NCBI GenBank assembly: GCA_002409215.1
Contig: DHUO01000006.1
Span: 2,419 to 38,314, forward strand
Source of the DNA: Candidatus Dojkabacteria bacterium UBA5232
GTDB lineage: Bacteria > Patescibacteriota > Dojkabacteria > SC72
Length of the DNA: 35,896 bases
Direction of reading: 5' to 3'
The translations under genes were made by a program, and so were the position numbers. Positions within the stretch are counted from its first letter, which is position 1. Each line of letters opens with the position of its first letter. The notes beneath the pieces are model-generated. The model saw only the letters and a program-made list of their open reading frames with translations, did not search any database and was not told the DNA's origin. Below, piece after piece: positions 530-23,393 of this stretch.

Positions 530-1465
530 ATGCATATGAATAAAGAAATATATGATATCGCAATAATTGGTTCAGGACCTGCAGGATTAAGTGCTAGTAT
601 CTATGCAAGTAGATATAAATTAACAAACATTGTATTTGGTAAAGTATCCGGTGGAACCATAACAGAGGGGCATAAGATATGTAACTATCCAGGGTATGAA
701 GATATTTCAGGAATGGAATTAGGTATGAAGATGTTTAATCATGCTAAGAAGGAAGGCGGGCAAACTTCAACAGAGAGTATTGTTGATATTAAGAAAGAAG
801 GAGATGTTTTCAAGTTACTGACAGATACCAACAAGGAGTATTTTAGCAAGACATTGTTACTTGCAACAGGTACAGAGCGAAATGAGTTAGCTTTAGCTAG
901 TGGAGGTAGGTATTTAGGTAAAGGTCTTTCATATTGTGCTACATGTGATGGTATGTTTTTCAGAGGGAAGAGGGTTGCTGTTGTTGGTGGTAGTAGTTCT
1001 GCAACGATGTCTGCTGTTATGCTTTCTGATATTGCAGAGAAGGTATACATTATATACCGAGGGGAGGAGTTAAGGGGAGAGCCTGCTTGGGCAGAGCAAG
1101 CAAAGTCTACAGAGAATGTTGAGGTGATATACAGTACTAATGTAAAAGAGTTGTTTGGAGAGGACCGATTAGAGGGTGTGAAGCTTTCCCTCCCTTACAA
1201 AGGCTCTGAGGAGCTCAAAATTGATGGGCTTTTTGTTGAAATTGGCTCTCAGCCTAATATTGCACTTGCTAATGAACTTGGTGTAGAGGTTGATGATTCT
1301 AACTATATTATTGTAGATAAGGAACAGAAAACAAATGTTGAGGGTGTTTGGAGTGCAGGGGACTGTACAACGAACTCTAATCAATTCAAACAGGCTGTGG
1401 TCGCTGCTGGTGAAGGAGCTGTAGCTGCAAGCTCCATATATAGATATCTTAAAAGCCTTACCTAG
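530..1465 (+). CDS. trxB: thioredoxin-disulfide reductase
   Basis: 311-aa ORF with FAD motif GSGPAG, redox-active CATC (YCATCDG), a second dinucleotide-binding motif GGSSSA and C-terminal AGDCT. An alternative ATG lies at 536. Confidence 0.9.
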   Translation: MHMNKEIYDIAIIGSGPAGLSASIYASRYKLTNIVFGKVSGGTITEGHKICNYPGYEDISGMELGMKMFNHAKKEGGQTSTESIVDIKKEGDVFKLLTDTNKEYFSKTLLLATGTERNELALASGGRYLGKGLSYCATCDGMFFRGKRVAVVGGSSSATMSAVMLSDIAEKVYIIYRGEELRGEPAWAEQAKSTENVEVIYSTNVKELFGEDRLEGVKLSLPYKGSEELKIDGLFVEIGSQPNIALANELGVEVDDSNYIIVDKEQKTNVEGVWSAGDCTTNSNQFKQAVVAAGEGAVAASSIYRYLKSLT

Positions 1466-1658
1466 GTCTGCCCCTTGTTAAGAAGATTTTCATCTTTGGG
1501 TTATACATATCACAAAAGGTTTCCTAACCCTTGGCGTATGTAGGATGTTCTTTTTACAGATATACACGTATGGGAACACATCTCAGAAAGCCTTTCAAAA
1601 AGAAGAACTTTGAGGTTCTTAAAAAGTTCTGAACGAAGGCCAGGCCTAGGTCAGGCCT
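1454..1658 (+). repeat. copy A of a ~205-nt intergenic element with inverted GC-rich termini (MITE-like or structured RNA)
   Basis: Aligns end to end with the reverse complement of 17977-18185. Identical blocks are 1461-1484, 1513-1534 and 1581-1590, and 1621-1650 matches 29/30. Termini are built around CCTAGG/AGGCCT. Confidence 0.7.
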
Positions 1659-2139
1659 GTTGAGAGTTTACAAAATCAACCCACTCTTGGAGGTAGTTGG
1701 AGCTTGACCAGTATTTTGGATCTCCGACGTTAAACTCTATCATCCCACCGTTCTTTTCAATAGTGTCATACTCTGGAATGTTCTCTCTTGCTGTTCTGTC
1801 TCCACCTTTTGTGAAGACATCTGGTTTGATAATATCAACTGCCTCAACACAATCGTTTCTGGTTGTGCTGTTGTATATCACAACATAATCTACCCCCTTA
1901 ATACCATCTACAATCCTTGCTCTGTCCAGCTCCGCCATAAAAGGTTTACCTTTTTTAGTAACAGCTCTTTGATCTCCATCAACAATTACAACCAAAATAT
2001 CACCAAACTTCTTTGATTCCATAAGGCAGGATACATGTCCTGGATGAATTGGATCGTAAAAACCTGATGTACAAACAATCTTCTTTCCTTTGAGCTTTTC
2101 ATCTCTTAACTTAGGGAAATCTTCTAGAGGTATTATCAT
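1651..2139 (-). CDS. cytidylyl/adenylyltransferase-family protein (RfaE domain II / TagD-like)
   Basis: 162-aa ORF with an HxGH-type nucleotidyltransferase motif near the N-terminus (GFYDPIHPGHV). Size is typical of this family. Confidence 0.6.
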   Translation of the reverse strand: MIIPLEDFPKLRDEKLKGKKIVCTSGFYDPIHPGHVSCLMESKKFGDILVVIVDGDQRAVTKKGKPFMAELDRARIVDGIKGVDYVVIYNSTTRNDCVEAVDIIKPDVFTKGGDRTARENIPEYDTIEKNGGMIEFNVGDPKYWSSSNYLQEWVDFVNSQQA

Positions 2140-2821: not shown

Positions 2822-4906
2822 ATGCCCGATAAAAAAAGTATTCCTGTAAGTAGAAAAAAGACTCCTTCTGTTAAGAAAAGAGATGGTAGAGTTGTGAGAT
2901 TTAGTAAAGAGAGGATAGTTAGAGGTATATTTAAGGCTGCTGAGAGTGTTGGTGGAAAAGATAGGCAGAGAGCTGAGGAGATAGCAGATGAGGTTGTTAA
3001 AAGAATTAAGAAGAAGTATGGGAATAAGGATGTCATTAAGACAGAAAAGATTGCAGAGATTGTTTCTGAAACCTTAAAGGATATGGGACATGGGAAGACC
3101 TCTATTGCTTTTGATCTTTTTGTTAGTTTGAAGAATGAGATTAAGAATATTAAATCGTTGATTGATGCTAATACTTTAGTTAAGGATTATATTGATAAGC
3201 TGGATTGGCAAGTTAATGAAAATAGTAATATGGCCTACTCTTGGCAAGGGCTGAATAATTACATTTCATCTTCTGTTCAAGCAAACTATTGGTTGCATAG
3301 TATATATCCAAAGGAGATTTCTAATGGGAATATAAATAAGGATTTCCATATTCATGATTTAGGTATGTTAGCTACATACTGTTGTGGTTGGAGTTTGGAG
3401 GATTTGCTTCTAAAAGGTTTTACAGGTGTTCCGGGTAAGATTTCTTCAGCACCTGCTAAGCATTTTAGCACTGCATTGGGACAATGTGTAAACTTCTTAT
3501 ATACATTGCAACATGAGGCTGCAGGAGCTCAAGCTTTTTCGAGTTTTGATACTTTTCTTGCTCCTTTTGTAAGGTATGACAAGCTTTCTTACAAAGAGGT
3601 TAAACAGAAGATGCAAGAGTTTATCTACAATATGAATGTTCCAACTAGAGTTGGTTGTCAAATACCTTTTACAAATATAACAATGGACTTGATTCCTTCG
3701 GGTCAGTTAGCTGAACAGGGTGTGATAATTGGTGGGCAGGTGCAGAAAGAGAAGTATAAGGATTTTCAGAAAGAGATGGGGATGATTAATAAGGCATTTT
3801 GTGAAATTATGATGGAGGGTGATGCACAGGGAAGACTTTTCTCTTTCCCTATTCCAACATATAACTTAACTAAAGATTTTGATTGGGATAATCCAGACTA
3901 CAAACCAATTTGGGAGATGACTGCTAAGTACGGTATTCCATATTTTTCTAACTTCATTAATTCGGATATGAGTCCTGATGATGCTAGAAGTATGTGTTGT
4001 AGGTTGAGGTTGGATAATAGAGAGTTGAGAAAGAGAGGTGGTGGTTTGTTTGGTGCAAATCCTCTAACAGGTAGTATTGGTGTAGTGACAATAAACTTGC
4101 CTAGGATAGGATATGTTGCAAAGAATAAAAGAGAGTATTTTAAGATACTGAATAAGCAGATGGATTTGGCAAAGAAGAGTTTGATGATTAAGCGAAAGTT
4201 TGTTGAAGGATATATGGAGAAGGGTCTTTATCCATACTCTCGATACTATTTGGCAGATATTAAGAAAAGGTTTGGTGAGTATTACAAAAATCATTTTAAT
4301 ACGATTGGAATAATTGGACTTAATGAATCGTTGATGAATTTCTTTAAGAGTAAGGAGAAAGGTATTACCTCTGTGGAAGGAAGGGAGTTTGGTGTTGAGA
4401 TTATGCAACATATGAGGGAGAGATTAATGACATATCAACAGAAAACAGATCAGCTGTTTAATCTTGAGGCTACTCCTGGTGAGGGTGCTACATACAAATT
4501 TGCTAAGGCAGATAAGAAGAAGTTTGGAGATGACATTATTACAGCATCGGATGTAGCTATTCATGAGTGTGAGGATGCAGTACCCTACTATACTAATAGT
4601 TCTCAGATTCCCGTTGGGTATACGGAGGATATTTTTGAGGCGTTGGATCTTCAAGATGATTTTCAATGTTTGTATACAGGAGGGACTGTTCAACATGTGT
4701 ATATTGGTGAGAGAGTGAGTTCTGTTAATGCTACAAAGAATCTTGTTAGAAAGATTGCTGAGAATTACAGACTCCCCTACTTCTCTATTACTCCGACATT
4801 TAGTGTTTGTCCAAAGCATGGATATATTGCAGGTGAGCATCAGTACTGTCCTAAGTGTGATTGTGAGGTTGGGTATAGGGAGGGAATGTTATTTGAAGCT
4901 AAATAG
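2822..4906 (+). CDS. nrdD: anaerobic ribonucleoside-triphosphate reductase, catalytic body lacking the glycyl-radical C-terminus
   Basis: 694-aa ORF with an N-terminal ATP-cone (KRDGRVVRFSKERIV), class III RNR core motifs (SMCCRLRL, NLEATPGE) and the C-terminal Zn site CPKHGY...CPKC. It stops at TAG 4904-4906 before any RxxGY glycyl-radical motif. Confidence 0.9.
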   Translation: MPDKKSIPVSRKKTPSVKKRDGRVVRFSKERIVRGIFKAAESVGGKDRQRAEEIADEVVKRIKKKYGNKDVIKTEKIAEIVSETLKDMGHGKTSIAFDLFVSLKNEIKNIKSLIDANTLVKDYIDKLDWQVNENSNMAYSWQGLNNYISSSVQANYWLHSIYPKEISNGNINKDFHIHDLGMLATYCCGWSLEDLLLKGFTGVPGKISSAPAKHFSTALGQCVNFLYTLQHEAAGAQAFSSFDTFLAPFVRYDKLSYKEVKQKMQEFIYNMNVPTRVGCQIPFTNITMDLIPSGQLAEQGVIIGGQVQKEKYKDFQKEMGMINKAFCEIMMEGDAQGRLFSFPIPTYNLTKDFDWDNPDYKPIWEMTAKYGIPYFSNFINSDMSPDDARSMCCRLRLDNRELRKRGGGLFGANPLTGSIGVVTINLPRIGYVAKNKREYFKILNKQMDLAKKSLMIKRKFVEGYMEKGLYPYSRYYLADIKKRFGEYYKNHFNTIGIIGLNESLMNFFKSKEKGITSVEGREFGVEIMQHMRERLMTYQQKTDQLFNLEATPGEGATYKFAKADKKKFGDDIITASDVAIHECEDAVPYYTNSSQIPVGYTEDIFEALDLQDDFQCLYTGGTVQHVYIGERVSSVNATKNLVRKIAENYRLPYFSITPTFSVCPKHGYIAGEHQYCPKCDCEVGYREGMLFEAK

Positions 4907-5073: not shown

Positions 5074-5769
5074 ATGGTTAAAATTGCTGGGCTTGAGAGG
5101 GTTTCTTTAATAGATTATCCTGAGAAAATATCTGCCATCATTTTTACACACGGTTGTAATTTGAGGTGTTCTTTTTGTCATAATCCAGAGCTTGTTTTGG
5201 TTGATTTTGATGGTAATTTGGCTGTTAAAGAGAGTGGGCTTTTTGAGTATTTAGAGGGAAGGAAGGGGAAGATTGATGCTGTTGTTATTACAGGAGGAGA
5301 ACCTTTGTTGCATAAAGATATTGGGAAGTTAATTAAGAAGATTAAGGATATTGGATATTTGGTTAAGCTTGATAGTAATGGTTTTTTTCCTAAAGAGCTA
5401 AAGAGATTGATATCTAAAGGGTTGATTGATTATATAGCGATGGATGTGAAGTGGCCTGAGGATAGTTATGTTAAGTATAGTGGTGATGTTAAGGCTGTAG
5501 AGAAGATTAAGGATAGTATTTCTATTATTGAAAATAGTGGTATTGCTCATGAGTTTAGAACTACTGTTGTGAAGGGAATTCATGAGATAGAGGATGTTGA
5601 AGAAATTGTTAAAATGTTACCAGAAGATTCTCTTTTTTATATTCAAAATTTTAGGGCTGGGAAAACGATTAATCCTACATTAGATGGTTCTAACTCTTTT
5701 ACAGAGAAGGAGCTAAAAGATATTCTTAAAGTAGCCAGAAAACATGTTAAGAACTCCTATGTTAGATAG
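5074..5769 (+). CDS. nrdG: anaerobic ribonucleotide reductase activating protein (radical SAM)
   Basis: 231-aa ORF with the CxxxCxxC radical-SAM cluster motif (GCNLRCSFCHNPE) and the SAM-binding motif ITGGEPL. It lies immediately downstream of nrdD. Confidence 0.85.
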   Translation: MVKIAGLERVSLIDYPEKISAIIFTHGCNLRCSFCHNPELVLVDFDGNLAVKESGLFEYLEGRKGKIDAVVITGGEPLLHKDIGKLIKKIKDIGYLVKLDSNGFFPKELKRLISKGLIDYIAMDVKWPEDSYVKYSGDVKAVEKIKDSISIIENSGIAHEFRTTVVKGIHEIEDVEEIVKMLPEDSLFYIQNFRAGKTINPTLDGSNSFTEKELKDILKVARKHVKNSYVR

Positions 5770-6412
5770 ATGGGTTTTCTAGAACCTTTATTACCCTACC
5801 ATTAATCAAAGTATCACTATTTGCATCAATATATATTGGTTGATTTTGAGGGTTACTAGAGTCAGGGTATAGAATTACCATATTCTTACCTTTCTTAAAC
5901 CTCTTTACAGTTGCACAGTTATCTATTATCGCAACAACGATATCCCCATCTTCAAATTGTGCATCTTTTTGTACAACGATATATCTTCCATTATCTAGCT
6001 TTTCACCATCTATCTGCGCTAGATTCATAGAATCACCCTTGATAATAAGGCTAAACAAATTATTCTTCCTTCCGATTATGTTTCTATCAATCTTAAGAAC
6101 ACCTATATTTTCCTCCTCGGCACTTACCATTGGTAGTCCTGCATTTGCATATCCTAATATTGGGACTCCTACAAGATAGTCATATACTATCTGATCATCA
6201 TTCTCTACCATATGTATACCCCTTGGCTGACTAGTTCTGAAAATATAGCCTTTCTTCTCAAGGGCGGACAAATGTACAACGACACCTCTTTTTGTTGATA
6301 TACCTAGCGCTTCCCGTAGTTCGTTGAGTGAAGGAGCATATCCATTCTCTAAGTAACACTCTTTAATTATTCTAAGAACCTCTTCTTGTTTCTGAGTGAG
6401 TATACCATCCAT
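5762..6412 (-). CDS. lexA: LexA repressor (S24 peptidase)
   Basis: N-terminal winged helix (LTQKQEEVLRII...GYAPSLNELREALGIS), an Ala-Gly cleavage site (ANAGLP), catalytic Ser in GDSM and Lys in VKRF. Confidence 0.85.
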   Translation of the reverse strand: MDGILTQKQEEVLRIIKECYLENGYAPSLNELREALGISTKRGVVVHLSALEKKGYIFRTSQPRGIHMVENDDQIVYDYLVGVPILGYANAGLPMVSAEEENIGVLKIDRNIIGRKNNLFSLIIKGDSMNLAQIDGEKLDNGRYIVVQKDAQFEDGDIVVAIIDNCATVKRFKKGKNMVILYPDSSNPQNQPIYIDANSDTLINGRVIKVLENPSI

Positions 6413-6584: not shown

Positions 6585-6947
6585 ATGGCTGAAGAAAAAA
6601 GTGCTAAAAGAGTCTATAAATTAGACGATATAAAGTTCAATGAGGAGAATAAAACCATGGCTATTGTCTCATGGATTTCTATCGTAGGTCTCATTATGTT
6701 CTTTGTTGAAAAGAAGGATCTTTTTGTAAGATATATTGGTGCTCAAATAATAGTCGTTAATATTGCAGCTATTCTTTTGTCTTTGATTGTGATGGTAATA
6801 CCTTTACTTCGATGGTTACTTGCTCCAATGCTTCCTTTAGCTACCCTTGTTATAATTATCATCGGAATGGTTAAAACATCAAAAGGAGAGAGATTTGATA
6901 TTCCATTAATCTCTGAATATGCACTTAAACTAATGAGTGCTGTTTAG
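6585..6947 (+). CDS. small multi-pass membrane protein (DUF4870-like)
   Basis: 120-aa ORF with 2-3 hydrophobic helices (MAIVSWISIVGLIMFFV, IIVVNIAAILLSLIVMVIPLL, LATLVIIIIGMV). It is divergent from lexA and followed by a terminator. Confidence 0.5.
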   Translation: MAEEKSAKRVYKLDDIKFNEENKTMAIVSWISIVGLIMFFVEKKDLFVRYIGAQIIVVNIAAILLSLIVMVIPLLRWLLAPMLPLATLVIIIIGMVKTSKGERFDIPLISEYALKLMSAV

Positions 6948-6970: not shown

Positions 6971-6998
6971 AAGGGGAGAGAAATCTCCCTTTTTTTTT
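6971..6998 (+). terminator. rho-independent terminator
   Basis: Stem GGGAGA (6974-6979) and TCTCCC (6984-6989) with a GAAA loop, followed by a run of 9 T (6990-6998). Confidence 0.65.
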
Positions 6999-8022: not shown

Positions 8023-9084
8023 TTACCACTTAATGGTATATCCTTTTAACCTAGTTCTAAGTGCAGAGTAAATGTAGTATATCCCGTATTTTATTTTATT
8101 TACTGGATAATCTCTACTATGTAGATACGTTATCTTCTCACCACCCAAACTTCTCTTAAACTCCCCTACACCACTCCAAGGGTGTTTTTTTTCCTCCCAA
8201 CCTTTAGGTGTCACCCCACCAAAAAGATCATACGTGGTACATCCTAACTCCTTTCCTAGTTCTAAACTCTTCCAATACAGTATTGGTGTAATAATCATAT
8301 TCTTCTGTCTAAACTCCGTACTAGAACAAGCTTGATAAAGGTGCATATTCTTACCGTAGACAGTGTTTTGCCATACTGAAATTGGTTTGCCATCATAATA
8401 TCCAATTACAAGGTAGCACATGCCATACTCCACCTGTTTTTTTAGTTCTGCGAGAAGTAGCTTTGTTGACTTATCTGTATATCCTTTAACCTTTACTGTC
8501 TGTTCATGTAACTTTTCAAAAACATTAAATTGAGAATCATCATTAAAAATCTTAACCTCTACTTCTGGCATCTTAGATAGTTTGTTTAACATATTTCTTC
8601 TGGAGGAGCTTAAATCACTTTTTAGTGAGTCCATATCCTTGGTTAAATCCATATGCTGTGATATTAAAGAATCAACATTGTGGATGGGAGCTTGGATAAA
8701 GCCGTTTTTATTGTAAAAATTAATCAAAATATCGTTCTCTATGTAAAGTGGAGAGAATCTAAACATAAAACAATTATTTTCTTTGCTTAAATCTTTACAA
8801 AACTCTGTTACCTCACTCCAAATCTCCTCGCTACCATCATCCATGAGCATAGGAGAATGCTTGCAGTCTAAGAACTTTCCGAAGAGTTTTGAATCACCAA
8901 TGTTCCCTGTGATTATTCCAACAAGCTTTTCATCTTTTTTGATGACATACCTAAATGCTTTAATCCCAACATCTATATTGTATTGATACCTTGCACTACT
9001 ATTAAGAAAAGAATATTCAGGAAGTTGCCTAACGTAATCATCCCATCTTTTATCATCTTCAATTTTCTCAAATGTAAGTTTCAT
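8023..9084 (-). CDS. FemAB-family peptidoglycan interpeptide-bridge aminoacyltransferase-like protein
   Basis: 353-aa ORF. The N-terminal pattern (W..Y....P..SFLNS..W) and overall length and layout resemble the FemX/FemAB family. Assigned from memory of the family only. Confidence 0.55.
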   Translation of the reverse strand: MKLTFEKIEDDKRWDDYVRQLPEYSFLNSSARYQYNIDVGIKAFRYVIKKDEKLVGIITGNIGDSKLFGKFLDCKHSPMLMDDGSEEIWSEVTEFCKDLSKENNCFMFRFSPLYIENDILINFYNKNGFIQAPIHNVDSLISQHMDLTKDMDSLKSDLSSSRRNMLNKLSKMPEVEVKIFNDDSQFNVFEKLHEQTVKVKGYTDKSTKLLLAELKKQVEYGMCYLVIGYYDGKPISVWQNTVYGKNMHLYQACSSTEFRQKNMIITPILYWKSLELGKELGCTTYDLFGGVTPKGWEEKKHPWSGVGEFKRSLGGEKITYLHSRDYPVNKIKYGIYYIYSALRTRLKGYTIKW

Positions 9085-9101
9085 TAAATCAGAATAACAA
9101 A

Positions 9102-10322
9102 TTAGATTACTTTTGCATACTTATCAATAATTTCTTTTATCTCTTTTGCTTTATCTTCATTCACTTCTATATTTGTTGGTAGGTTTATAATATGCTTAGA
9201 GCAGAACTCTACTTCTGAGCACTCACCTACTCTATATCCTAAACATTCTAGCTTGTCCCAAGTAATTGGGAATACTGGCGTTGTATACCAATTACCTGAT
9301 ATTACGCCTATCTCTCTTAGTCTTTGCTTAATCTCTACTGGATTTTCAACAAGGAGTGGGTATCTTAACAGGGTTTCATTTCTACCATATACATCTGCAA
9401 TCTTCTTTCTATTTTCATTAAACGCTGAAAGATGTTTTAATTGGGTTAGTAGTAGTCTGGCTTGCACATTACTCATCTTATGTATTCCATCAAAATCCAC
9501 AGTATCACTCGATGCCTGCTTTTTAATTACTCCCCAAAAACGATACCACAGTAGGAGTGCTTTACCTACTGTTATCTTTGGTAGCAGAATTTTCTTAAAG
9601 TAGTTCTTTTTAATCTTATCCCAACAGAGAACGTATTTTGCATTGTACAAGGCCTCTTTTGTTGAAAGCTCTTCAACCTCCTCATACTTCTTATCTAAAT
9701 CACCACTTAGAAAGTGCATATGATTTATCACCAATGCAGAGCCTTGTGTAGAGCTGATACTTTTATCCTGTGCAAAACTGAAGAAAAAAGCATCGGAATA
9801 TTTACCTATCTGCTTGTTTTCAAAATCTAATATATGCGCACAATCTTCGAGGATGAAAATATCATTGCTGTCGTTTCTTTTAGAGTTTTCTTGATCAACA
9901 ATCTCCCGTACTCTAGACATATTTGCGATGTTCCCAAAAGTATGTTGTACAACTATGGCTCTAGTTTTGTCAGAAATCTTCTCTCTCATTTTTTCCAAAT
10001 CCATATTAAAAGTATCTCTTTTGATATCAACAAAAACAGGCTTACATTTGCTCCAGAGAATTGGTGCTAATACTGCAATACAGGTAAAACCTTGAAGGAT
10101 AACTTCATCATCAGGTTGAAGGTTTAAGTTCTGAAAAAGGAAGTACATTGCATCTCTTCCTCTGTTAAAAAAATACACGCTTTTCTCGTTGTATTCATTC
10201 TGAAAAATGGTTTTCAGCTCATTAATACTACCAGTAACAGAAACAGTACCTTCTAAAATGCCTTTTGCAGCGTTCAAATCCTCTTCTGTTGTGTTTGGTG
10301 TAGAGCCTATGAATATACTCAT
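9102..10322 (-). CDS. DegT/DnrJ/EryC1/StrS-family PLP-dependent aminotransferase
   Basis: 406-aa ORF with a fold-type I sugar-aminotransferase layout and a candidate PLP lysine in FSFAQDKSISSTQGSAL. Its start overlaps the mutL stop (TAATG). Confidence 0.6.
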   Translation of the reverse strand: MSIFIGSTPNTTEEDLNAAKGILEGTVSVTGSINELKTIFQNEYNEKSVYFFNRGRDAMYFLFQNLNLQPDDEVILQGFTCIAVLAPILWSKCKPVFVDIKRDTFNMDLEKMREKISDKTRAIVVQHTFGNIANMSRVREIVDQENSKRNDSNDIFILEDCAHILDFENKQIGKYSDAFFFSFAQDKSISSTQGSALVINHMHFLSGDLDKKYEEVEELSTKEALYNAKYVLCWDKIKKNYFKKILLPKITVGKALLLWYRFWGVIKKQASSDTVDFDGIHKMSNVQARLLLTQLKHLSAFNENRKKIADVYGRNETLLRYPLLVENPVEIKQRLREIGVISGNWYTTPVFPITWDKLECLGYRVGECSEVEFCSKHIINLPTNIEVNEDKAKEIKEIIDKYAKVI

Positions 10323-15395: not shown

Positions 15396-16499
15396 ATGTC
15401 CATATTCAGAAAGAGAAAAGATGTTAAAAAAACAGGCTTTACAAAAGTCTACATGCCTCTTAAAAAAAAGGTTCCTCACAAAGTTTTAAGAAAGAAGAAA
15501 AGAACACTCTTTGGACATAATAACAAACCTCTCAGAAGAAGAGCTTTCGATGCTGAGAAGTTTAAAAGAAGTTTAGTGATTGGTTTGGGAATACTATTTG
15601 GTATCGGTTTTCTATATCTTTCTATAATCTTCATTATTAATCTTAGAAAACAGAAACCTGTTGAAGTTATTACAGAGAATGTTGTTGGATTAATAGATAT
15701 TCCTGCTTTCCCAGGTTCAAGCTTCTTATTTGAAAATGATACCGAAAACACAGCAGTATCAGCATTCATTAGCTCTGGCGCATCTGCATATAAGATCCCA
15801 AATAAAAAGAGTATTGAAGATGTTTATGAATTTTATCAAGAACAACTGCCTGATAAAGGATGGTCATTCATAATATTAGCCCCCATTGCTTCAGAGAGTA
15901 TGGAAAGTGGACAGTATTGGGTGAAAGAAAGTACAGGTCTAAGAATATATACAAAACATAGAGATGTCTGGTACGAAACAATTACTAAAGAACAGGCAGA
16001 GAGCGGTTTGGCTGACAGAGTAAAAAAACGTGTTGAAAGAGATTTACTATTAACAAATGAGGACGCTCAAGATTTGCTTCCCGACTTTCCGTGGTTACTC
16101 AAAGTCCCGAGAGAGTATGTTATTAGCTATACAGTAGCTCCATATGAGAATATGAGGACATTAGTAATGAAAAAACTTGGTTCCGAAGAGAAGCTTTTAT
16201 TACTTCCAATAGATAAGTATCATGGGAAAGGATTGGATTATTACCTAGACAGGTATGTTGAGTACAGAAATAAAGAGGGGGAGGAAGCTTGTGGTATTAA
16301 GAGAACAACTATTGCATACGCACCCTATTCATCTGTTGTAAGAGGTGAGGTCTCTTGTAATAATGGTCTGCATGATGTAGCAGTCATTGTTAATCCAAAT
16401 ATAGGGATAGTTTATATATTGGATAGTAACCTAGCACAAAATCCGTATTTTGATGAAGTATTAAAAAATCTCCAACCCCAAGACTCTAGACGTTATTAA
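15396..16499 (+). CDS. hypothetical single-pass membrane protein with highly basic cytoplasmic N-terminal tail
   Basis: 367-aa ORF. The first ~60 aa are very Lys/Arg-rich, followed by the TM helix LVIGLGILFGIGFLYLSIIFII and a large C-terminal domain of unknown family. Confidence 0.5.
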   Translation: MSIFRKRKDVKKTGFTKVYMPLKKKVPHKVLRKKKRTLFGHNNKPLRRRAFDAEKFKRSLVIGLGILFGIGFLYLSIIFIINLRKQKPVEVITENVVGLIDIPAFPGSSFLFENDTENTAVSAFISSGASAYKIPNKKSIEDVYEFYQEQLPDKGWSFIILAPIASESMESGQYWVKESTGLRIYTKHRDVWYETITKEQAESGLADRVKKRVERDLLLTNEDAQDLLPDFPWLLKVPREYVISYTVAPYENMRTLVMKKLGSEEKLLLLPIDKYHGKGLDYYLDRYVEYRNKEGEEACGIKRTTIAYAPYSSVVRGEVSCNNGLHDVAVIVNPNIGIVYILDSNLAQNPYFDEVLKNLQPQDSRRY

Positions 16500-17958
16500 A
16501 ATACTCGAAAACCAACCTGCTTATTTTCTTATTATGCAAAACAGAGTCAATATCTTCTTGTGAGGCCTTTTTGATATTCTCAATACTTCCAAATGTTTTC
16601 AGAAGTTTATTCCTACTCTTCTCCCCCACCCCTACTATTTCATCAAGCTCTGAGGTTTTTGCTGTTTTTGCTCTTGCTTTCCTGTGGTGAAGAATTGCAA
16701 ATCTGTGAGCTTCATCTCGAAGATCTATTAACAGACCTTTATTCTGTATTTCAATATTCATACTCTCTCCATTCTCCCTGTTTAGATACCAAAACTCATC
16801 TAACAGTTTGGCTCCTCTTTTTCTGTATTTCCTGCCTTTCGTTATACCTAGAACACATATTTCTTTTGGGATATGGGGATTTACTACTGAAAGTTGAGCC
16901 TTACCTCCATCAATTAGTAATATCTCTGGCTCTAGTTCGTATTTTTTAATATGTTTTGAATCAAATCTTCTTTGCATAACCTCCTTTAACATATGCATAT
17001 CGTTTGGAGTGTCTAATTCCCTTATCTTAAACACCCTATACTGACTTCTTAGAATCTCTCCGTTTTGTGCTACTACCATGGAGCCGTAGGCATCCTTCCC
17101 CTGTATATTTGATATGTCATAACACTCTATTCTTTTTAATTTTTTCAAACCTAACTCAATTTTGAGGTCTTGAAAGTTCTCGTACAGCAACTTCTTTCTT
17201 CTTTTCACATACGTTTCAGCAGTATCTGTATATTCAAAATCTATTTTCTCTCCGAGATATTTCAAATCATTAATCTTATCTCTAAGTTCAGCTGCTTTTT
17301 CATAAAGTTTCTTTTTAGAGTATTGCCTCATTTTAACTTCAAGTTTTGCTATTTGCCCCCTTTTTCTTCCTTGTAGGAATTTGCGTATTTCATTGATATT
17401 TTTTCTATACTCCCTCTCCGATATATGTCCTTGGTATGGCCCTGGACAGAGTCCTAGGTGATAGTACATACACTCTCTGCTTCTAGTTCTTTCTTTGCAT
17501 GTGCAGAATGGGTGTAGTTTTCTCAGGTATGTGAAAACCCTTCTTGCCGAATGAGTGTTGGGATATGGACCAAAAAGTTCACCTTTTTGTAATTCTTTGT
17601 TGGTAATGCTCCTTGTTATTTTAACTGTCGGGAATTTTTCTTTTGTAGATAGATATATCCATGCGTATGATTTGTCATCTTTTAGTTCACTGTTGTATTT
17701 TGGTTTTAGTTCTTTAATTAGGGCTGATTCTAGTACTAGAGATTCTATCTCGTTATTTGTTTCTTCTACTTCGATTTTGGAGATAAAAGGGATCATTCTT
17801 TTTACATATGGTCTGTCGTAGAGAGTGTCGTTGAAGTATGATTTAACCCTGTTTCTTAGATTTAGGGCTTTACCTACGTAAAGGATTTTGTTGTTTTTGT
17901 CATAGAACTTGTATACCCCTGGTTTAAGGGGAAGTAGTTCTAGTTCGTTAAGGTTCAT
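16486..17958 (-). CDS. uvrC: excinuclease ABC subunit C (short form, 490 aa)
   Basis: GIY-YIG N-terminus (GVYKFYDKNNKILYVGKALNLRNRVKSYF), a Cys-rich segment, a UVR domain (YEKAAELRDKINDLKYL), the endonuclease region RIECYDISNIQG and a C-terminal HhH (VGVGEKSRNKLLKTFGSIENI). Confidence 0.9.
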   Translation of the reverse strand: MNLNELELLPLKPGVYKFYDKNNKILYVGKALNLRNRVKSYFNDTLYDRPYVKRMIPFISKIEVEETNNEIESLVLESALIKELKPKYNSELKDDKSYAWIYLSTKEKFPTVKITRSITNKELQKGELFGPYPNTHSARRVFTYLRKLHPFCTCKERTRSRECMYYHLGLCPGPYQGHISEREYRKNINEIRKFLQGRKRGQIAKLEVKMRQYSKKKLYEKAAELRDKINDLKYLGEKIDFEYTDTAETYVKRRKKLLYENFQDLKIELGLKKLKRIECYDISNIQGKDAYGSMVVAQNGEILRSQYRVFKIRELDTPNDMHMLKEVMQRRFDSKHIKKYELEPEILLIDGGKAQLSVVNPHIPKEICVLGITKGRKYRKRGAKLLDEFWYLNRENGESMNIEIQNKGLLIDLRDEAHRFAILHHRKARAKTAKTSELDEIVGVGEKSRNKLLKTFGSIENIKKASQEDIDSVLHNKKISRLVFEYFNNV

Positions 17959-17963
17959 GATTG

Positions 17964-17969
17964 ATTATA
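17964..17969 (-). promoter_or_regulatory. -10 box TATAAT 5 nt upstream of the uvrC ATG
   Basis: The minus strand reads ctgTATAAT-caatc-ATG. It lies 7 nt outside repeat copy B. Confidence 0.4.
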
Positions 17970-17976
17970 CAGTATG

Positions 17977-18185
17977 AGGCCTTGCCTAGGCCTGGCCTTC
18001 GTACAGAACTTTTTCATAAAGGGAGAGTTTGTATCTTTCTGAGAACCTTTCTTTAGCTACACCTTGCCACCCCTGTTCCTGCAAAGAGTACATGCTACCA
18101 AAACCAAGGGTTAGGAAACCTTTTGAGGTATGCACATCCAAAAGATGAACAGATTCTTAACAAGGGGCAGACCTAGGCCAGACCT
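17977..18185 (-). repeat. copy B of the ~205-nt element (inverted relative to copy A)
   Basis: The reverse complement aligns with 1454-1658. Identical blocks are 18154-18177 and 18104-18125, and 17985-18014 matches 29/30. It fills the dnaE-uvrC spacer. Confidence 0.7.
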
Positions 18186-18187
18186 AT

Positions 18188-21100
18188 CTAAACCGCAAAG
18201 ACATTCATCCATTCCCTAGTTTCATCATTGAGAGGTATTGTTTTTTTGAGCTGTACTACCTTGTTTTTACTCCCATCGTTAACAACTATCCTAACAAGTG
18301 TATCACCTTCTGAGTTAGCAATATATTTCTTTAATTGGGAAATCTCCTCCTGTGTGTGTTCTGGAGCTATTCTAAATGTAATACCCTCAAATACCTCTGT
18401 ATGCTTAGAAAGGTCTATCATTTTAGCTTTTTCTACGATAACACTCTTCTCCCCATCCCTAACATTAAGCTTACCAACAAGTAGTACTGCAGAACCCTCT
18501 TTGATAGTCCCTTTCAACTCTTGATATGTTCGTGGAAAAACCACAGCATCTGTTTTTGCAGTCTTATCTTCTATGCTTAAAAAGGCCATCATCTCACCCT
18601 TCTTTGTTGTAATCCTTCTGATTTTTGTAACCATAACTCCAAGAACAAGCAAATCATGATTCTTCTTTTCTGTAAGAGCCTCCTCTAACGTTATGACACC
18701 TTTGGAGAGGAAAAGATCTTGAAGATTGTCTAGAGGGTGACTGGAGAAATACAAACCTAAAAGTTCTTTCTCCCACTGTGGGATAAGGTTACGATCGGAT
18801 TCCTCATCTTTAATGAGTGGAGTTGCAACAATTCTTGTCTTCCCCTCTTCATCTTGCCCAAGGGAGAAGAAGTCAAACTGTCCTATACTTGTTGATTTTC
18901 TATTATCCTTCTCTTTTTCATATACTATTGGGAATGTTTTTATTAAATCTAACCTATCTCCAAAAGAGTCCATGGCTCCTGACATAATTAGATACTCTAT
19001 GGCTTTCTTACCAACACTTTCATACACCCTATGTACAAAATCATCTAAGTTTGAGTACTCACCATCCTCTTCCCTTTCTTTAATAATGGTTTTAACAAGC
19101 TCTCCTCCTACATTTTTTATCCCTCCCAAACCAAACCTGATACTATCTGTACCTTCTGCGTTAAAGTAGTAACCACTCTTATTTATATCAGGAGGTAAAA
19201 CATTAATTCCCAGTCTTTTACACTCTTTAAGATCTAAGATTACCCTATCAAACTTATCTACATCTCCTTCTAGAAGTGCTGCCATATATTCTAATGGGTA
19301 GTTCGCTTTAAGGTATGCTGTCCAGTATGCAATCATCGCATACGATGCACTATGTGCTTTATTAAAACCGTAGTTTGCGAACTGTATTAGTTTATCCCAC
19401 AACTTTTCAACCTTATCTTTATCAAAACCTTTTTCGATAGCACCGTTTACAAATGCAGGTTTTTCCTTTTCCATAACGTCTAACTTCTTTTTACCCATTG
19501 CTCTTCTTAGAACATCTGCTTTTCCTAGGGAATAGCCAGCTATTATCTGAGCAATTTTCATAACCTGCTCTTGATATGTTATAACTCCTCTTGTGACTGA
19601 TAGAACAGATTCTAGTTCATCAAAGATATAGTCTGGTTCCTGTTTGCCTTTCTTTACTGCCTGATACTCTGTAATGTACTGCATTGGTCCCGGTCGATAT
19701 GCTGCAATTATATAGCAGATATCTTCTAAACTTTCGGGCTCAAGTGTCCTAATCGTTCTTTTCATTCCCTCGCTTTCCATTTGAAAAATCCCTACTGTAT
19801 GACCTGATTTAATTAAGGAGAATGTGGCTTTGTCATATGCATCAATATTTCGTAGATCTACTTTCTCCCCTCTACTCCTTTCAATCTTCTTAAGTGCTGC
19901 ACCTATCACATGAAGATTTCTTAAGCCAAGAAAGTCGTATTTCATTAATCCTAGTGGCTCTATATCAAACATTTCGTACTGTGTCATACCTATACCCTCT
20001 CCATGAGCATCTCTTTGTATTGGGCAGTACTCAACAACTGGTTCTGGAGTAATGATTACACCACAAGCATGGGTAGACACCCCTCTGCATAATCCTGCTA
20101 CTTTTCTAACAATATTGGCTAAGTGTTTTGTTTCTTCTGAAGAATTAATTATATCTGCAAATTCCGGATTATGTTCAATCATGTAGTCTATATCTTTTGA
20201 TTTACCAAAAACAATCTCAACCATTTTAGAAAGTGTATCAGCTGTCTTAAGGTCAATGCCTATTACCCTTGCAACATCTCTAATCGCCTGGCGAGTTTGG
20301 AGCTTGCTAAACGTCCCTATCTGCTTTACATTATCTAAGCCGTATTTATCAATGGCGTATTGAATTACTTCATCCCTTCTTTTATCTGCAATATCAATAT
20401 CAAAGTCTGGCGGACTTGGTCTTTCCGGATTAAGGAAGCGCTCGAAGTACAGCTCCCAAGAGATTGGTTCTATGACAGTGATATCTGTTGCATACGCTAC
20501 TACCGAACCACATCCAGAACCTCTCATTCCCACAACAATATCATTATCCCTACAAAACTTTATGAAGTCCCTAACAACTAAAAAGTAGTCATCGTAACCC
20601 TTCTCGTGTATTAAGTCTAATTCATAGTCCAGACGCTTCATTAATTCATCATCAACTTTTTCATACTTCTCTTTTACCCCTTCATAAGCTAATTTCTTCA
20701 GGTATGTTCTTGCTGTTTCCCCTTCTGGAAGATCTAGGAACTTTGTTTCGACTCTTTCAAAGGTAATATCGTACTCCTCTATCTGGTCAGATATCTTCTG
20801 AGTATTCTCTATTGCTTCTGGAATATCGCTAAACAGCTCCTTCATCTGCTCTGAAGTCTTTACATAGAATTCATTGGTAGGCATCCTTCTCCTGTCTGGA
20901 TTATCCATAGTGTACCCATCTGAAATACACCAAAGTATTTCTTGGATTTCCGAATCTTCTTTATTCAGATAGTGGGAATCACATGTAGCTACAAGTGGTA
21001 GCTTTAATTCTTTTGCTATTTTAATTAACCCTTCATTAACCATGTTCTGCTCCTCCATCCCGTTTCTCTGAATCTCGATATAGAAGTTGTCTTTGAAAAG

Positions 21101-21586
21101 CTTGGAGTATTGTTGCGCTCTCTCTAAAGCTGTTTTCTCATCATTATTCAAAAGTGGTTGTGCAACTGGTCCTGCTAAACATGCAGAAAGTGCTATTAGC
21201 CCCTCTGTGTGTTTAGAAAGGGTCTCGATATCAATCCTGGGACGATAGTAGAAGCCTTCCATATGAGCAATGGAAACAATTTTGACTAGATTTTTGTAAC
21301 CTTGAAGATTCTTGGCAAGAAGTATTAGGTGAAAATAGTTGTTATCTATCCCATACTCTTTCTGATCCATAGATCTTGGAGCTACATAAACCTCACAGCC
21401 AATTATTGGCTTAAGTCCTTCTGCTTTCATCGCACTCTGGAACTTATAAACTCCGTACATGTTTCCATGGTCTGTAATTGCACACGATTTCATACCATTC
21501 TCTTTTAGTTTTTCAATCAAACTTGGTATTCTAATCGCAGCATCCAGTAGGGAGTACTCTGTATGTAAGTGTAAATGACTAAACAT
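18188..21586 (-). CDS. dnaE: DNA polymerase III alpha subunit
   Basis: PHP domain (FSHLHLHTEYSLLDAAIRI), polymerase core (GYSLGKADVLRRAMGKKK, FNKAHSASYA) and an OB fold. The listed ORF starts at TTG 21598, but ATG 21586 gives the usual MFSHLHxHT start. Confidence 0.93.
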   Translation of the reverse strand: MFSHLHLHTEYSLLDAAIRIPSLIEKLKENGMKSCAITDHGNMYGVYKFQSAMKAEGLKPIIGCEVYVAPRSMDQKEYGIDNNYFHLILLAKNLQGYKNLVKIVSIAHMEGFYYRPRIDIETLSKHTEGLIALSACLAGPVAQPLLNNDEKTALERAQQYSKLFKDNFYIEIQRNGMEEQNMVNEGLIKIAKELKLPLVATCDSHYLNKEDSEIQEILWCISDGYTMDNPDRRRMPTNEFYVKTSEQMKELFSDIPEAIENTQKISDQIEEYDITFERVETKFLDLPEGETARTYLKKLAYEGVKEKYEKVDDELMKRLDYELDLIHEKGYDDYFLVVRDFIKFCRDNDIVVGMRGSGCGSVVAYATDITVIEPISWELYFERFLNPERPSPPDFDIDIADKRRDEVIQYAIDKYGLDNVKQIGTFSKLQTRQAIRDVARVIGIDLKTADTLSKMVEIVFGKSKDIDYMIEHNPEFADIINSSEETKHLANIVRKVAGLCRGVSTHACGVIITPEPVVEYCPIQRDAHGEGIGMTQYEMFDIEPLGLMKYDFLGLRNLHVIGAALKKIERSRGEKVDLRNIDAYDKATFSLIKSGHTVGIFQMESEGMKRTIRTLEPESLEDICYIIAAYRPGPMQYITEYQAVKKGKQEPDYIFDELESVLSVTRGVITYQEQVMKIAQIIAGYSLGKADVLRRAMGKKKLDVMEKEKPAFVNGAIEKGFDKDKVEKLWDKLIQFANYGFNKAHSASYAMIAYWTAYLKANYPLEYMAALLEGDVDKFDRVILDLKECKRLGINVLPPDINKSGYYFNAEGTDSIRFGLGGIKNVGGELVKTIIKEREEDGEYSNLDDFVHRVYESVGKKAIEYLIMSGAMDSFGDRLDLIKTFPIVYEKEKDNRKSTSIGQFDFFSLGQDEEGKTRIVATPLIKDEESDRNLIPQWEKELLGLYFSSHPLDNLQDLFLSKGVITLEEALTEKKNHDLLVLGVMVTKIRRITTKKGEMMAFLSIEDKTAKTDAVVFPRTYQELKGTIKEGSAVLLVGKLNVRDGEKSVIVEKAKMIDLSKHTEVFEGITFRIAPEHTQEEISQLKKYIANSEGDTLVRIVVNDGSKNKVVQLKKTIPLNDETREWMNVFAV

Positions 21587-21600
21587 ATTTTGCCCCAATC

Positions 21601-22658: not shown

Positions 22659-23393
22659 ATGGCAAAGATAGATTTAAGAGGAGTGTTAGGTCTTTCAGTA
22701 ATCTATGAAGGTGACGATCTAACCTTAAAAGATACTGAATATAAAGAAAAACTGATTGTTTCGATTGATGATGTTAGGGAGCAATTATTAAACAAGGAAC
22801 TAGATTGTCCAGAAGTTTTCTACACCAAATACAAACAGCTTGATACAAAGAATCTCTTTACTTCCAAGAAACTAAAGCTAAATATATATACAATGAAGTC
22901 TAATCTGGCGGGAATAGAGTATGTAAAAACAAGAGCTACTAGGTGTGGTAAATATCCAAGAATCTTTGAAGTACTCTACGGTAGTGCTACCATACTAATC
23001 CAAAGATATAAATCTGCCAAGGAAAATAGGATTATCAAAATCCAAGCTAAGAAAGGTGACAAAGTCATTGTCCCTGCTGGGTATGATTTTGTCGCTACAA
23101 ACCCAAGACAAAGCTCTACTTTGATATTAGCTGAAGTTATGAGTATAAAGGCTTCACCAAGAGTTACTCTTGATGATAACAATGGAATAGCTTATTATGT
23201 AATAAGAAAAAATGCCAAACAAGAAATTGTTAGAAATCCTAATTACAAGATAGTTAATGAATTGGAAAAGGTTGATATGCAAAGTATAGTTAAGGATTAC
23301 GGCATAACTCCGAAGACAGCGATAACAAAACAGGTTATAAGAAAATATGAGAAATTTGACTGGTTATTTAAAGAAGACTCTGTTAGCTATTAG
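22659..23393 (+). CDS. cupin-type phosphoglucose-isomerase-like protein with degenerate metal site
   Basis: 244-aa ORF. Its pattern PEVFYTKY...AGIEYVKTRATRCG...IFEVLYGSATILIQ...GDKVIVPAGYDFVATN...NPNYK is collinear with archaeal cupin PGI (TKGHFH...EVY...G...PP.WAHR..N), but the His ligands are replaced. Alignment is from memory. Confidence 0.4.
   Translation: MAKIDLRGVLGLSVIYEGDDLTLKDTEYKEKLIVSIDDVREQLLNKELDCPEVFYTKYKQLDTKNLFTSKKLKLNIYTMKSNLAGIEYVKTRATRCGKYPRIFEVLYGSATILIQRYKSAKENRIIKIQAKKGDKVIVPAGYDFVATNPRQSSTLILAEVMSIKASPRVTLDDNNGIAYYVIRKNAKQEIVRNPNYKIVNELEKVDMQSIVKDYGITPKTAITKQVIRKYEKFDWLFKEDSVSY

Follow-up and report, generated by a model that had tools for sequence, protein, structure and literature searches.

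A 35,896-nucleotide stretch of the Candidatus Dojkabacteria bacterium UBA5232 genome (contig DHUO01000006.1, positions 2,419–38,314; this whole stretch is called the window) contains two copies, A and B, of a repeat that belongs to a family of 20 distinct copies, 203–209 nt in length, found at 10 intergenic loci on related Candidatus Dojkabacteria contigs. We lean towards interpreting the family as non-coding, non-autonomous interspersed repeats that resemble miniature inverted-repeat transposable elements (MITEs). This interpretation draws on the dispersal of the copies, their inverted termini, gains into minimal spacers, insertion in both orientations, truncation, variants that share only the terminus, and turnover. 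An original prediction, made from the letters of the window, had listed four candidates for the pair of copies: a structured small RNA, a terminator or insulator, a REP-like site and a MITE-like element. Our results favour the MITE-like or REP-like end of that list, and the structured RNA gains no support from covariation. The repeat family is previously undescribed, its kind is already known (bacterial MITEs, ERIC, Correia or RPE-like repeats), and it has so far been seen solely in one clade of Candidatus Dojkabacteria, which belong to the candidate phyla radiation (CPR, or Patescibacteria).

Two copies of one repeat in the window

The two copies, their conserved parts and the genes that flank them are listed here.

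1453–1658, plus strand: copy A, 206 nt, between the convergent trxB and cytidylyltransferase-like genes; nhmmer E = 3e-54; ends set by family comparison
1453–1474, plus strand: left arm of copy A; degenerate outer heptamer AAGCCTT (1453–1459) in place of AGGTCTG, spacer ACCT, inner heptamer AGGTCTG (1464–1470), then CCCC
1513–1534, plus strand: conserved internal block 2 of copy A, CAAAAGGTTTCCTAACCCTTGG; identical in copy B
1621–1658, plus strand: right arm of copy A, containing AAAAAGTTCTGA; ACGAAGG (1633–1639), CAGGCCT heptamers at 1641–1647 and 1652–1658, spacing 11 bp
17977–18185, minus strand: copy B, 209 nt, between the dnaE stop (18188–18190) and the uvrC promoter and start; profile E = 3e-50
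18164–18185, minus strand: left arm of copy B, AGGTCTG GCCT AGGTCTG CCCC
18104–18125, minus strand: conserved internal block 2 of copy B, identical to that of copy A in the alignment
17977–18014, minus strand: right arm of copy B, AAAAAGTTCTGTACGAAGGCCAGGCCTAGGCAAGGCCT
530–1465, plus strand: trxB-like gene (Pfam Pyr_redox_2, 5.9e-43); last three codons and stop within copy A
1651–2139, minus strand: cytidylyltransferase-like gene (Pfam CTP_transf_like); its final CAG GCC TGA (QA and stop) comes from the right arm of copy A
18188–21598, minus strand: dnaE, DNA polymerase III alpha (Pfam); stop 2 nt upstream of copy B
16486–17958, minus strand: uvrC (Pfam); −10 box TATAAT at 17964–17969

As predicted, copies A and B are homologous from end to end, both in the direct alignment and against the family profile, and together they account for I1 (99 nt, 83%) and I2 (62 nt, 77%), which no other inverted repeat of the window exceeds in length. 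The identical blocks reported between them are present: CCTAGGTCTGCCCCTTGTTAAGAA at 1461–1484 against the reverse complement of 18154–18177, CAAAAGGTTTCCTAACCCTTGG at 1513–1534 against that of 18104–18125, and 29 of 30 positions at 1621–1650 against that of 17985–18014. The ten-nucleotide block TCTCAGAAAG at 1581–1590 also recurs in copy B (18044–18035), but is offset by 13 nt. Copy A had been placed at 1454–1658; the right end stands, and family comparison moves the left end to 1453. The trxB stop (TAG, 1463–1465, within CCTAGG) does lie in the left arm of copy A, and the complement of the minus-strand TGA stop (1651–1653) in its right arm. The inverted, G+C-rich ends pair in both copies, with minimum free energies (MFE) of −63.3 and −70.7 kcal/mol and z-scores of −2.9 and −2.3 for A and B, respectively. 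Downstream of copy B, the uvrC TATAAT box lies 7 nt beyond the right end and 5 nt ahead of the ATG, an arrangement that is also present at sites lacking the element. A fermentation-metagenome contig (L001) overlaps the window and carries an identical element sequence. Those UvrC and cytidylyltransferase homologues that have a named source are assigned to Candidatus Dojkabacteria (WS6).

A dispersed family at the ends of genes

Copies were gathered from orthologous dnaE–uvrC spacers and by scanning Joint Genome Institute (JGI) metagenomes with a degenerate right-arm pattern. Recognisable copies occupy the dnaE–uvrC spacers of relatives with 93%, 80% and 78% UvrC identity, and the pattern scan returned 21 loci, including one chance match (L021) and one truncated copy (L017). 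The 20 distinct copies form our alignment A5, and a profile search of 449 kb of related loci found none beyond them. The possibility, raised with the original prediction, that only the two window copies exist is set aside by these 20 copies at 10 loci, whose contexts are as follows.

trxB / cytidylyltransferase gene (convergent): window copy A, L018, L020, L031, L032/33
dnaE to uvrC: window copy B, L005–11, L015/16/26
SpoU-type methylase gene to RsmD-like gene: L019, L023; element reversed relative to both genes
upstream of mgsA/rarA: L022/25
upstream of polA: L027, L036; opposite orientations
88-amino-acid gene to fic: L028
88-amino-acid gene to fic: L017, truncated copy
tRNA-Arg(GCG) to tRNA-Arg(UCG) to argS: L029, L035, L037; element begins 0–4 nt past the first tRNA
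serS and SocA-like antitoxin gene (divergent): L030
infB to RuBisCO large-subunit gene: L034

All copies lie at gene ends or between genes, and none lies within an open reading frame (ORF). The −10 box of the next gene usually follows 2–11 nt past the element end. No transposase, integrase or RAYT gene adjoins any copy, and the flanks examined by Pfam contain no Y1/RAYT-like gene. In L034, a RuBisCO large-subunit homologue (8778–10208) stands directly downstream of infB and the element; RuBisCO is already known from CPR bacteria.

The family matches no RNA family in Rfam 15, which includes 6S, Y RNA, OLE, HEARO, raiA and terminator-type sRNAs. The whole window at the gathering score and both copies at E values up to 10 yielded only tRNAs and noise, the best weak match to the element being rli40 (10.9 bits against a threshold of 100). 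Our search of the literature for repeats or MITEs in Dojkabacteria and Patescibacteria turned up no account of an interspersed repeat. An exact-word scan of GTDB with an 18-mer from block 2 returned two chance matches only (Leptolyngbya and Bacteroidales contigs); this 18-mer is specific to the window genome, so the scan is uninformative on distribution. Scans of IMG/VR with block 2 and with the left and right termini likewise gave chance matches only. One unrelated viral contig from IMG/VR (L038; 5807–5838 and 5902–5928) carries, inside a 203-amino-acid ORF, three perfect and two to three imperfect tandem 11-mers, TAGGTCTGCCC, a sequence that in the left arm of the element comprises the inner heptamer and the spacer; the resemblance is probably coincidental.

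Phased heptamers and block-wise conservation

Over the 20 copies, the consensus reads 5′ AGGTCTGGCCTAGGTCTGCCCC-NN-GTTAAGAAAATTTTAATC ... CAAAAGGTCTCCTAACCCTCGGC ... AAAAAGTTCTGAACGAAGGCCAGGCCTAGGTCAGGCCT 3′. The element ends are imperfect terminal inverted repeats of about 40 bp whose similarity fades inward. The outer 18 bp of each end, AGGYCTGRCCTAGGYCTG, are 97% complementary across the 20 copies and consist of two AGGYCTG heptamers with RCCT between them, which gives the heptamers their spacing of 11 bp. Each element thus has four heptamers, two in direct orientation at each end and one helical turn apart. A conserved internal block, AAAGG-YYUCCUAAC-CCU, lies beside a fast-evolving centre, and ACGAAGG in the right arm is invariant in the family. 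Mean pairwise identity in A5 is 0.92 and 0.91 in the outer arms, 0.71–0.79 in the inner arms, 0.72 in block 2 (columns 67–90) and 0.52–0.58 in the centre; the block-wise conservation first noticed between the two window copies is therefore valid for the whole family. Folded by itself, the right arm forms a 7-bp G+C-rich hairpin; the left arm does not.

An extended −10-like box, TGGTAGAAT or TGGTAGTAT, is present in about 15 of the 20 copies at A5 columns 91–99 (TGGTAGWAT; 1541–1549 in copy A, 18097–18089 in copy B). It resembles the TGGTAnAAT boxes upstream of genes in the same contigs and, pointing to the right arm, could act as an internal promoter directed outward.

The claim that the element contains no ORF holds in that there is no coding signal, and fails in that several members are open in one frame throughout. 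In L018, L022, L031, L036 and L037, one element-strand frame stays open for 67–71 codons, essentially the full length, encoding peptides like ...GLGLPPVKKILISRIMHFTKGLL...KSYERRPGLGQA; in all other copies, the two in the window included, this frame is interrupted. Column entropy is equal for the three codon positions (0.315, 0.320 and 0.319), showing no codon periodicity, and copies differ by 1-nt indels, from which we conclude that the element is not coding. A small protein was rejected on these grounds, despite the five open copies.

Insertion, inversion and replacement

The original prediction had called for comparison with orthologous loci that lack the element, and empty sites were found for both window loci. 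The trxB/cytidylyltransferase site is empty in L076–L080, where the convergent stops are 2–5 nt apart; the element therefore replaced native C-termini. At the empty sites, TrxB ends in YLNS or YLNK and the cytidylyltransferase in NSKEE or NNKK. With the element, the endings are YLKQS or YLKSLT (...YLKSLT in the window) and NSQQA. Every retrieved cytidylyltransferase homologue of at least 89% identity ends in ...NSQQA or NSKQA, and less similar homologues end in ...NSKEE, NNKK, NSQK and so on. The repeat also supplies the end of a gene at a third locus, that of a SpoU-type methylase gene, which like trxB and the cytidylyltransferase gene takes its last two to three codons and its stop from the repeat.

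The dnaE–uvrC site is empty in L014 and L039–L043, where a spacer of 26–38 nt contains just a TGGTATAAT promoter; in L012 and L013 the site is occupied by a gene for a YibE_F-family membrane protein (8837–9985), with spacers of 27 and 15 nt. The element is present here in only two of five roughly equidistant clades (76–81% UvrC identity between clades), and the copies of the two occupied clades are only about 50% identical to each other. Upstream of polA, whose products are 81% identical at the amino acid level, L027 and L036 share a common junction, CCT/TTTRTGTTAAAAT (in full, CCT/TTT(A/G)TGTTAAAAT...ATGAAT), and the element is inverted between them.

Disrupted and substituted copies were also found. 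L017 retains only AGGTCTC and the last ~61 nt of the element, separated by a 2.46-kb segment; in L028, where the neighbouring genes are the same (about 96% amino acid identity), the element is intact. The 2.46-kb segment (L017:6314–8772) encodes a 776-amino-acid protein with C-terminal TPR repeats, and a 395-nt segment with a MazG-like ORF (L017:8834–9228) flanks the 61-nt remnant on its other side; the near-identical locus in L028 holds the intact element only, with neither segment. We considered the TPR protein as a transposase and rejected it; its N-terminal 473 amino acids have no Pfam match. At the mgsA site, L023 carries a 170-nt variant (5648–5817) that shares the family's 18-nt terminus, AGGTCTGACCTAGGTCTG, and has a right end that is complementary in part and an interior unrelated to the family, at the same site as the canonical copy of L022 and L025; there the left flanks of L022 and L023 are 72% identical and the right flanks 93%. 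At another shared site, the elements of L019 and L023 are 74% identical between flanks that are 91% identical, and the L019 element is 88% identical to copies at other loci.

CAAC abuts one end of the element (CAAC/AGG, read outward-in) at six of the 10 loci, and GAAC at a seventh. The background frequency of CAAC is 0.0043, giving a binomial P of about 1e-8 to 1e-10 for a motif that was picked after viewing the data. CAAC occurs at either end and never at both; L036 comes nearest, its left end adjoining CAAA and its right end CAAC. CAAC may mark the insertion target, or it may be what is left of a longer inverted repeat (CAAC...GTTG) that has eroded. The absence of an obvious target duplication, noted for the window copies, extends to the family, with nine of 10 loci lacking any flanking direct repeat of at least 3 nt. 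The exception is L027, with a 6-bp repeat, TTTATG.

Divergence rates and mosaic loci

We compared element identity with identity at four-fold-degenerate sites of the flanking genes.

Window and L018–L032: element 0.72–0.75; four-fold sites about 0.5 (looser codon set)
L027 and L036: element 0.75; four-fold sites 0.47
L029 and L037: element 0.70; four-fold sites 0.42
L020 and L032: element 0.96; four-fold sites 0.74
L009 and L015: element 0.94; four-fold sites 0.73
Window and L005: element 0.75; four-fold sites 0.61 (dnaE) and 0.77 (uvrC, looser set)
L019 and L023: element 0.74; four-fold sites 0.72–0.84

An element identity of 0.70–0.75 is retained at saturating divergence, because near-invariant arms are combined with a nearly random centre. 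Pairs at short distance are inconsistent, some lying well above neutral sites and others not, and sliding windows are equally spread. Two sharp shifts in divergence coincide with the element, one between the flanks of L022 and L023 and the other between L020 and L032. We therefore interpret the rates as constraint on the arms and block 2 together with episodic replacement. We rejected the rates as proof of selection: the mixed results arise because the loci are recombination mosaics, and the rates, as read from these alignments, are not proof of a host function. At the trxB locus, the cytidylyltransferase of L020 is 94% identical to that of the window and that of L032 72%, yet L020 and L032 share 91% amino acid identity in TrxB and 96% identity in the element; the window TrxB is only about 70% identical to all of these, and ancestry around the element is mosaic.

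The case for a MITE-like repeat

The family shares with MITEs a length below about 500 bp without a transposase ORF, terminal inverted repeats, and dispersed copies with insertion polymorphism. The most economical mechanism, we infer, is an end-recognising protein acting on the four AGGYCTG heptamers. A transposase or recombinase supplied in trans would bind the phased heptamers, pair both ends and insert the element beside CAAC without a regular target duplication. The inserted element would then be carried along and passively transcribed as part of a 3′ untranslated region (UTR) or a tRNA-operon spacer, and in such RNA its arms can form a rod of 35–45 bp. The loci compared show directly that elements were gained in very short spacers between housekeeping genes, in either orientation, that they overwrite the last codons of neighbouring genes and bring new stops, and that they are later truncated or replaced.

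Several observations weigh against this interpretation. The fixed-length target-site duplication that characterises MITEs is missing, as nine of 10 loci lack a regular duplication. No autonomous element or transposase with these ends was found in the 449 kb of related loci, among the metagenome right-arm matches or in IMG/VR, and copy number looks low, with a few in each sample. In some orthologous pairs the element is conserved well above four-fold sites, which is unlike decaying junk DNA. The strand asymmetry described below hints at a strand-specific RNA role. With no regular duplication, no partner element and CAAC at one end only, we withhold a clean MITE assignment.

A possible rod-shaped RNA

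The chief alternative, which we regard as unlikely, is that the element is a functional structured RNA, a rod of about 205 nt derived from read-through transcripts (3′ UTRs and the tRNA-Arg spacer). The terminal helix would then govern processing or stability, for instance as a substrate of RNase III or by insulating neighbouring transcription units from each other, and a partner, either protein or RNA, would recognise the C-rich loop (UCUCCUAAC) or the invariant ACGAAGG. The ends pair in all 20 copies. Written as 31 pairs, the terminal rod is 92.9% paired overall and 97% paired in its outer 20 pairs, where every one-sided change preserves a G-U, A-U or G-C pair on the element strand. All three consensus mismatches of the outer stem are G-U on the element strand, and that strand folds 4.7 kcal/mol better than its complement on average (13 of 20 copies; Wilcoxon P = 0.017, with copies that are not independent). 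At about seven loci, the gene or tRNA that lies upstream has the same strand as the element; the mgsA locus is unclear in this respect. In L029, L035 and L037, where the element begins just past tRNA-Arg(GCG) and is followed by tRNA-Arg(UCG), the arrangement would be ideal for release by tRNA processing. Several orthologous pairs exceed four-fold-site conservation, the arms and block 2 are kept while the centre drifts, and most copies contain the −10-like TGGTAGWAT.

Covariation does not support this alternative. Among the outer 20 pairs of these 20 related sequences, 12 are invariant, five vary on one side and none has changed on both sides. The terminal-helix covariation score of 0.082 was reached by 30 of 500 shuffles and is thus inside the shuffle range. 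Variation in the stem falls precisely on the Y of each heptamer and the R of each spacer, so a degenerate DNA site explains the variation equally well, with no need for RNA wobble. Four candidate interior hairpins are no better than shuffles (71.7% paired against 71.5%). No common interior fold emerged from RNAalifold (20, 18 or 12 copies), from a stacked-pair covariation scan or from single-sequence MFE folds, which disagree with one another. The 5′ flanks are unrelated, and so no promoter is shared ahead of the element. At three loci (SpoU/RsmD-like, serS/SocA and polA in L036), the gene upstream faces away from the element; of the two polA orthologues, L036 has the element in the opposite orientation to L027. 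Sister lineages manage without the element at both window loci, and Rfam gives no match even at E = 10. Like 6S RNA and the bacterial Y RNAs, the element is about 200 nt long with ends that form a long closing stem; unlike them, it is dispersed in multiple copies and has no conserved central bubble or tRNA-like domain, no covariation and no Rfam match at E values up to 10. Kink-turn and attC-like motifs in the arms were rejected on inspection, as the sequence misfits their consensus.

A related and similarly improbable possibility is that the element exceeds a decaying MITE and is either a functional, strand-specific rod RNA of about 205 nt or the substrate of an undescribed fold-back recombinase that inserts beside CAAC. 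In the first version, the RNA would be freed from tRNA operons and 3′ UTRs, and its arms, ACGAAGG internal loop and C-rich loop would serve the CPR cell. In the second, a hairpin-recognising enzyme would insert the element in either orientation without target duplication. Conservation of copies above four-fold sites, the strand-asymmetric fold and the one-ended CAAC keep these versions alive.

A possible host-serving DNA site or terminator

It is also conceivable, at a still lower probability, that the element is a DNA site serving the host, similar to REP/BIME or ERIC sequences, at which a host protein (a nucleoid-associated protein, a topoisomerase or a regulator) would bind the four phased AGGYCTG heptamers, organising or insulating transcription units, and which would spread by recombination and not by transposition. 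The arms are kept as sequence and not as mere pairs (12 of 20 outer-helix pairs invariant), the heptamers are spaced by 11 bp, the two sharp divergence shifts (L022 against L023, L020 against L032) fall at the element, and the element mostly ends 2–11 nt upstream of the next −10 box. Against this stand the lack of a candidate binding protein, the low copy number, the unrelated functions of the loci, and the absence of the element from the same promoters in sister lineages, where nothing visible takes its place. Moreover, the adjacency to CAAC and the two orientations at one junction fit insertion better than spread by recombination. A LexA/SOS operator, considered since several neighbours are repair genes, was rejected: the arm has GTTC-N-GAAC and not GAAC-N4-GTTC, and the neighbours recovered by the unbiased metagenome scan are functionally mixed.

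Least probable of all is that the element serves as an intrinsic terminator in both directions, acquired where genes are convergent or tightly packed. Copies are found between transcription units without exception, at most loci they adjoin the 3′ end of at least one gene or tRNA, and the 7-bp hairpin of the right arm was aligned by cmscan to a terminator-like stem-loop of rli40 (E = 2.2). However, no U-tract follows the stem in either direction, 205 nt is far above what a terminator needs, the L030 locus lies between divergent genes, and relatives have only 2–5 nt (convergent pair) or 26–38 nt (dnaE/uvrC) without a hairpin. The short sister spacers and the missing U-tract make a terminator role an unlikely reason for the element's existence.

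Comparison with known repeats

Like bacterial MITEs and MITE-like repeats such as the Correia (Neisseria), ERIC/IRU (enterobacterial), RUP (pneumococcal) and Nezha (cyanobacterial) repeats, the Dojkabacteria element falls within 100–400 bp, is non-coding and is dispersed between genes, and it has imperfect inverted ends and a transcript that folds as a long hairpin. Overlap with gene ends and presence/absence polymorphism are further features of bacterial MITE-like repeats, and long persistence at orthologous sites recalls ERIC. Correia and RUP elements duplicate TA. By contrast, the Dojkabacteria element has no regular duplication and no partner insertion sequence that we could find; its ends are two phased heptamers, CAAC is one-sided, copy number is low and the host is a CPR bacterium with a reduced genome. 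The Rickettsia palindromic elements (RPE) are also palindromic repeats of 100–200 bp in reduced genomes that can add codons to host proteins, as the Dojkabacteria element does at three genes, and five of its copies stay open in one frame; but none of the Dojkabacteria copies found lies inside an ORF, and they show no codon periodicity.

With the IS200/IS605-derived PATEs and IS91-type elements, the family shares the lack of target duplication, an adjoining tetranucleotide (CAAC/GTTG) and fold-back potential, which suggests single-strand intermediates. Those elements have separate subterminal hairpins and no long terminal inverted repeats, and their target motif is always at the same end (5′ of the left end in the PATEs), whereas the Dojkabacteria element has CAAC at either end and a hairpin of its own in the right arm only. 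REP/BIME sequences are likewise palindromic and extragenic, have a conserved sequence and are linked to recombination and to mosaic boundaries. Their units measure about 35 bp, lie in clusters, number hundreds of copies and go with RAYT transposases; the Dojkabacteria unit, unlike these, is single and about 205 bp long, with no RAYT gene in the flanks examined by Pfam. An integron attC site, with its R″/L″ and L′/R′ boxes (RYYYAAC ... GTTRRRY), cassette arrays and nearby intI, was rejected: the flanks GTTGTG, GTTGTA and GTTCTT misfit GTTRRRY, and the copies stand isolated among housekeeping genes.

Other observations in the window and its relatives

A TAnnAT box, often an extended −10 of the TGGTATAAT type, lies 5–8 nt before the ATG of many genes, leaving no room for a Shine–Dalgarno sequence. 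Such boxes occur in the window at 17956–17969 and upstream of the genes at 22659, 12166 (minus strand), 6412 (minus), 27030 (minus), 29896 (minus) and 30473 (minus), and in relatives at L014:9985–10003 and in L039–L043. The placement of these boxes suggests that leaderless mRNAs are common in this Dojkabacteria lineage. The hairpin at 6973–6989 (GGGGAGAGAAATCTCC followed by a T-run), between the gene at 6585–6947 and a tRNA-Pro, is the sole convincing classical terminator-like hairpin in the first 20 kb of the window and scores on both strands; other terminator-like sites occur at background frequency. The anaerobic ribonucleotide reductase NrdD has 694 amino acids and no intein in the window (2822–4906), and 1,335 amino acids with intein and LAGLIDADG matches in L076–L078 (1–2335).

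Significance

CPR genomes are small and tightly packed, and spacers of 2–40 nt are normal here; a 205-bp repeat has lodged in them repeatedly. The repeat rewrites gene termini and marks shifts in divergence, which matters for the annotation of these genomes; it matters as well for their assembly and binning, and it serves as a marker for the dynamics of genomes in this uncultured lineage. If its arms turn out to be the substrate of an unknown recombinase, or if its RNA is functional, the family would offer an entry to the mobile-DNA or RNA biology of CPR bacteria.

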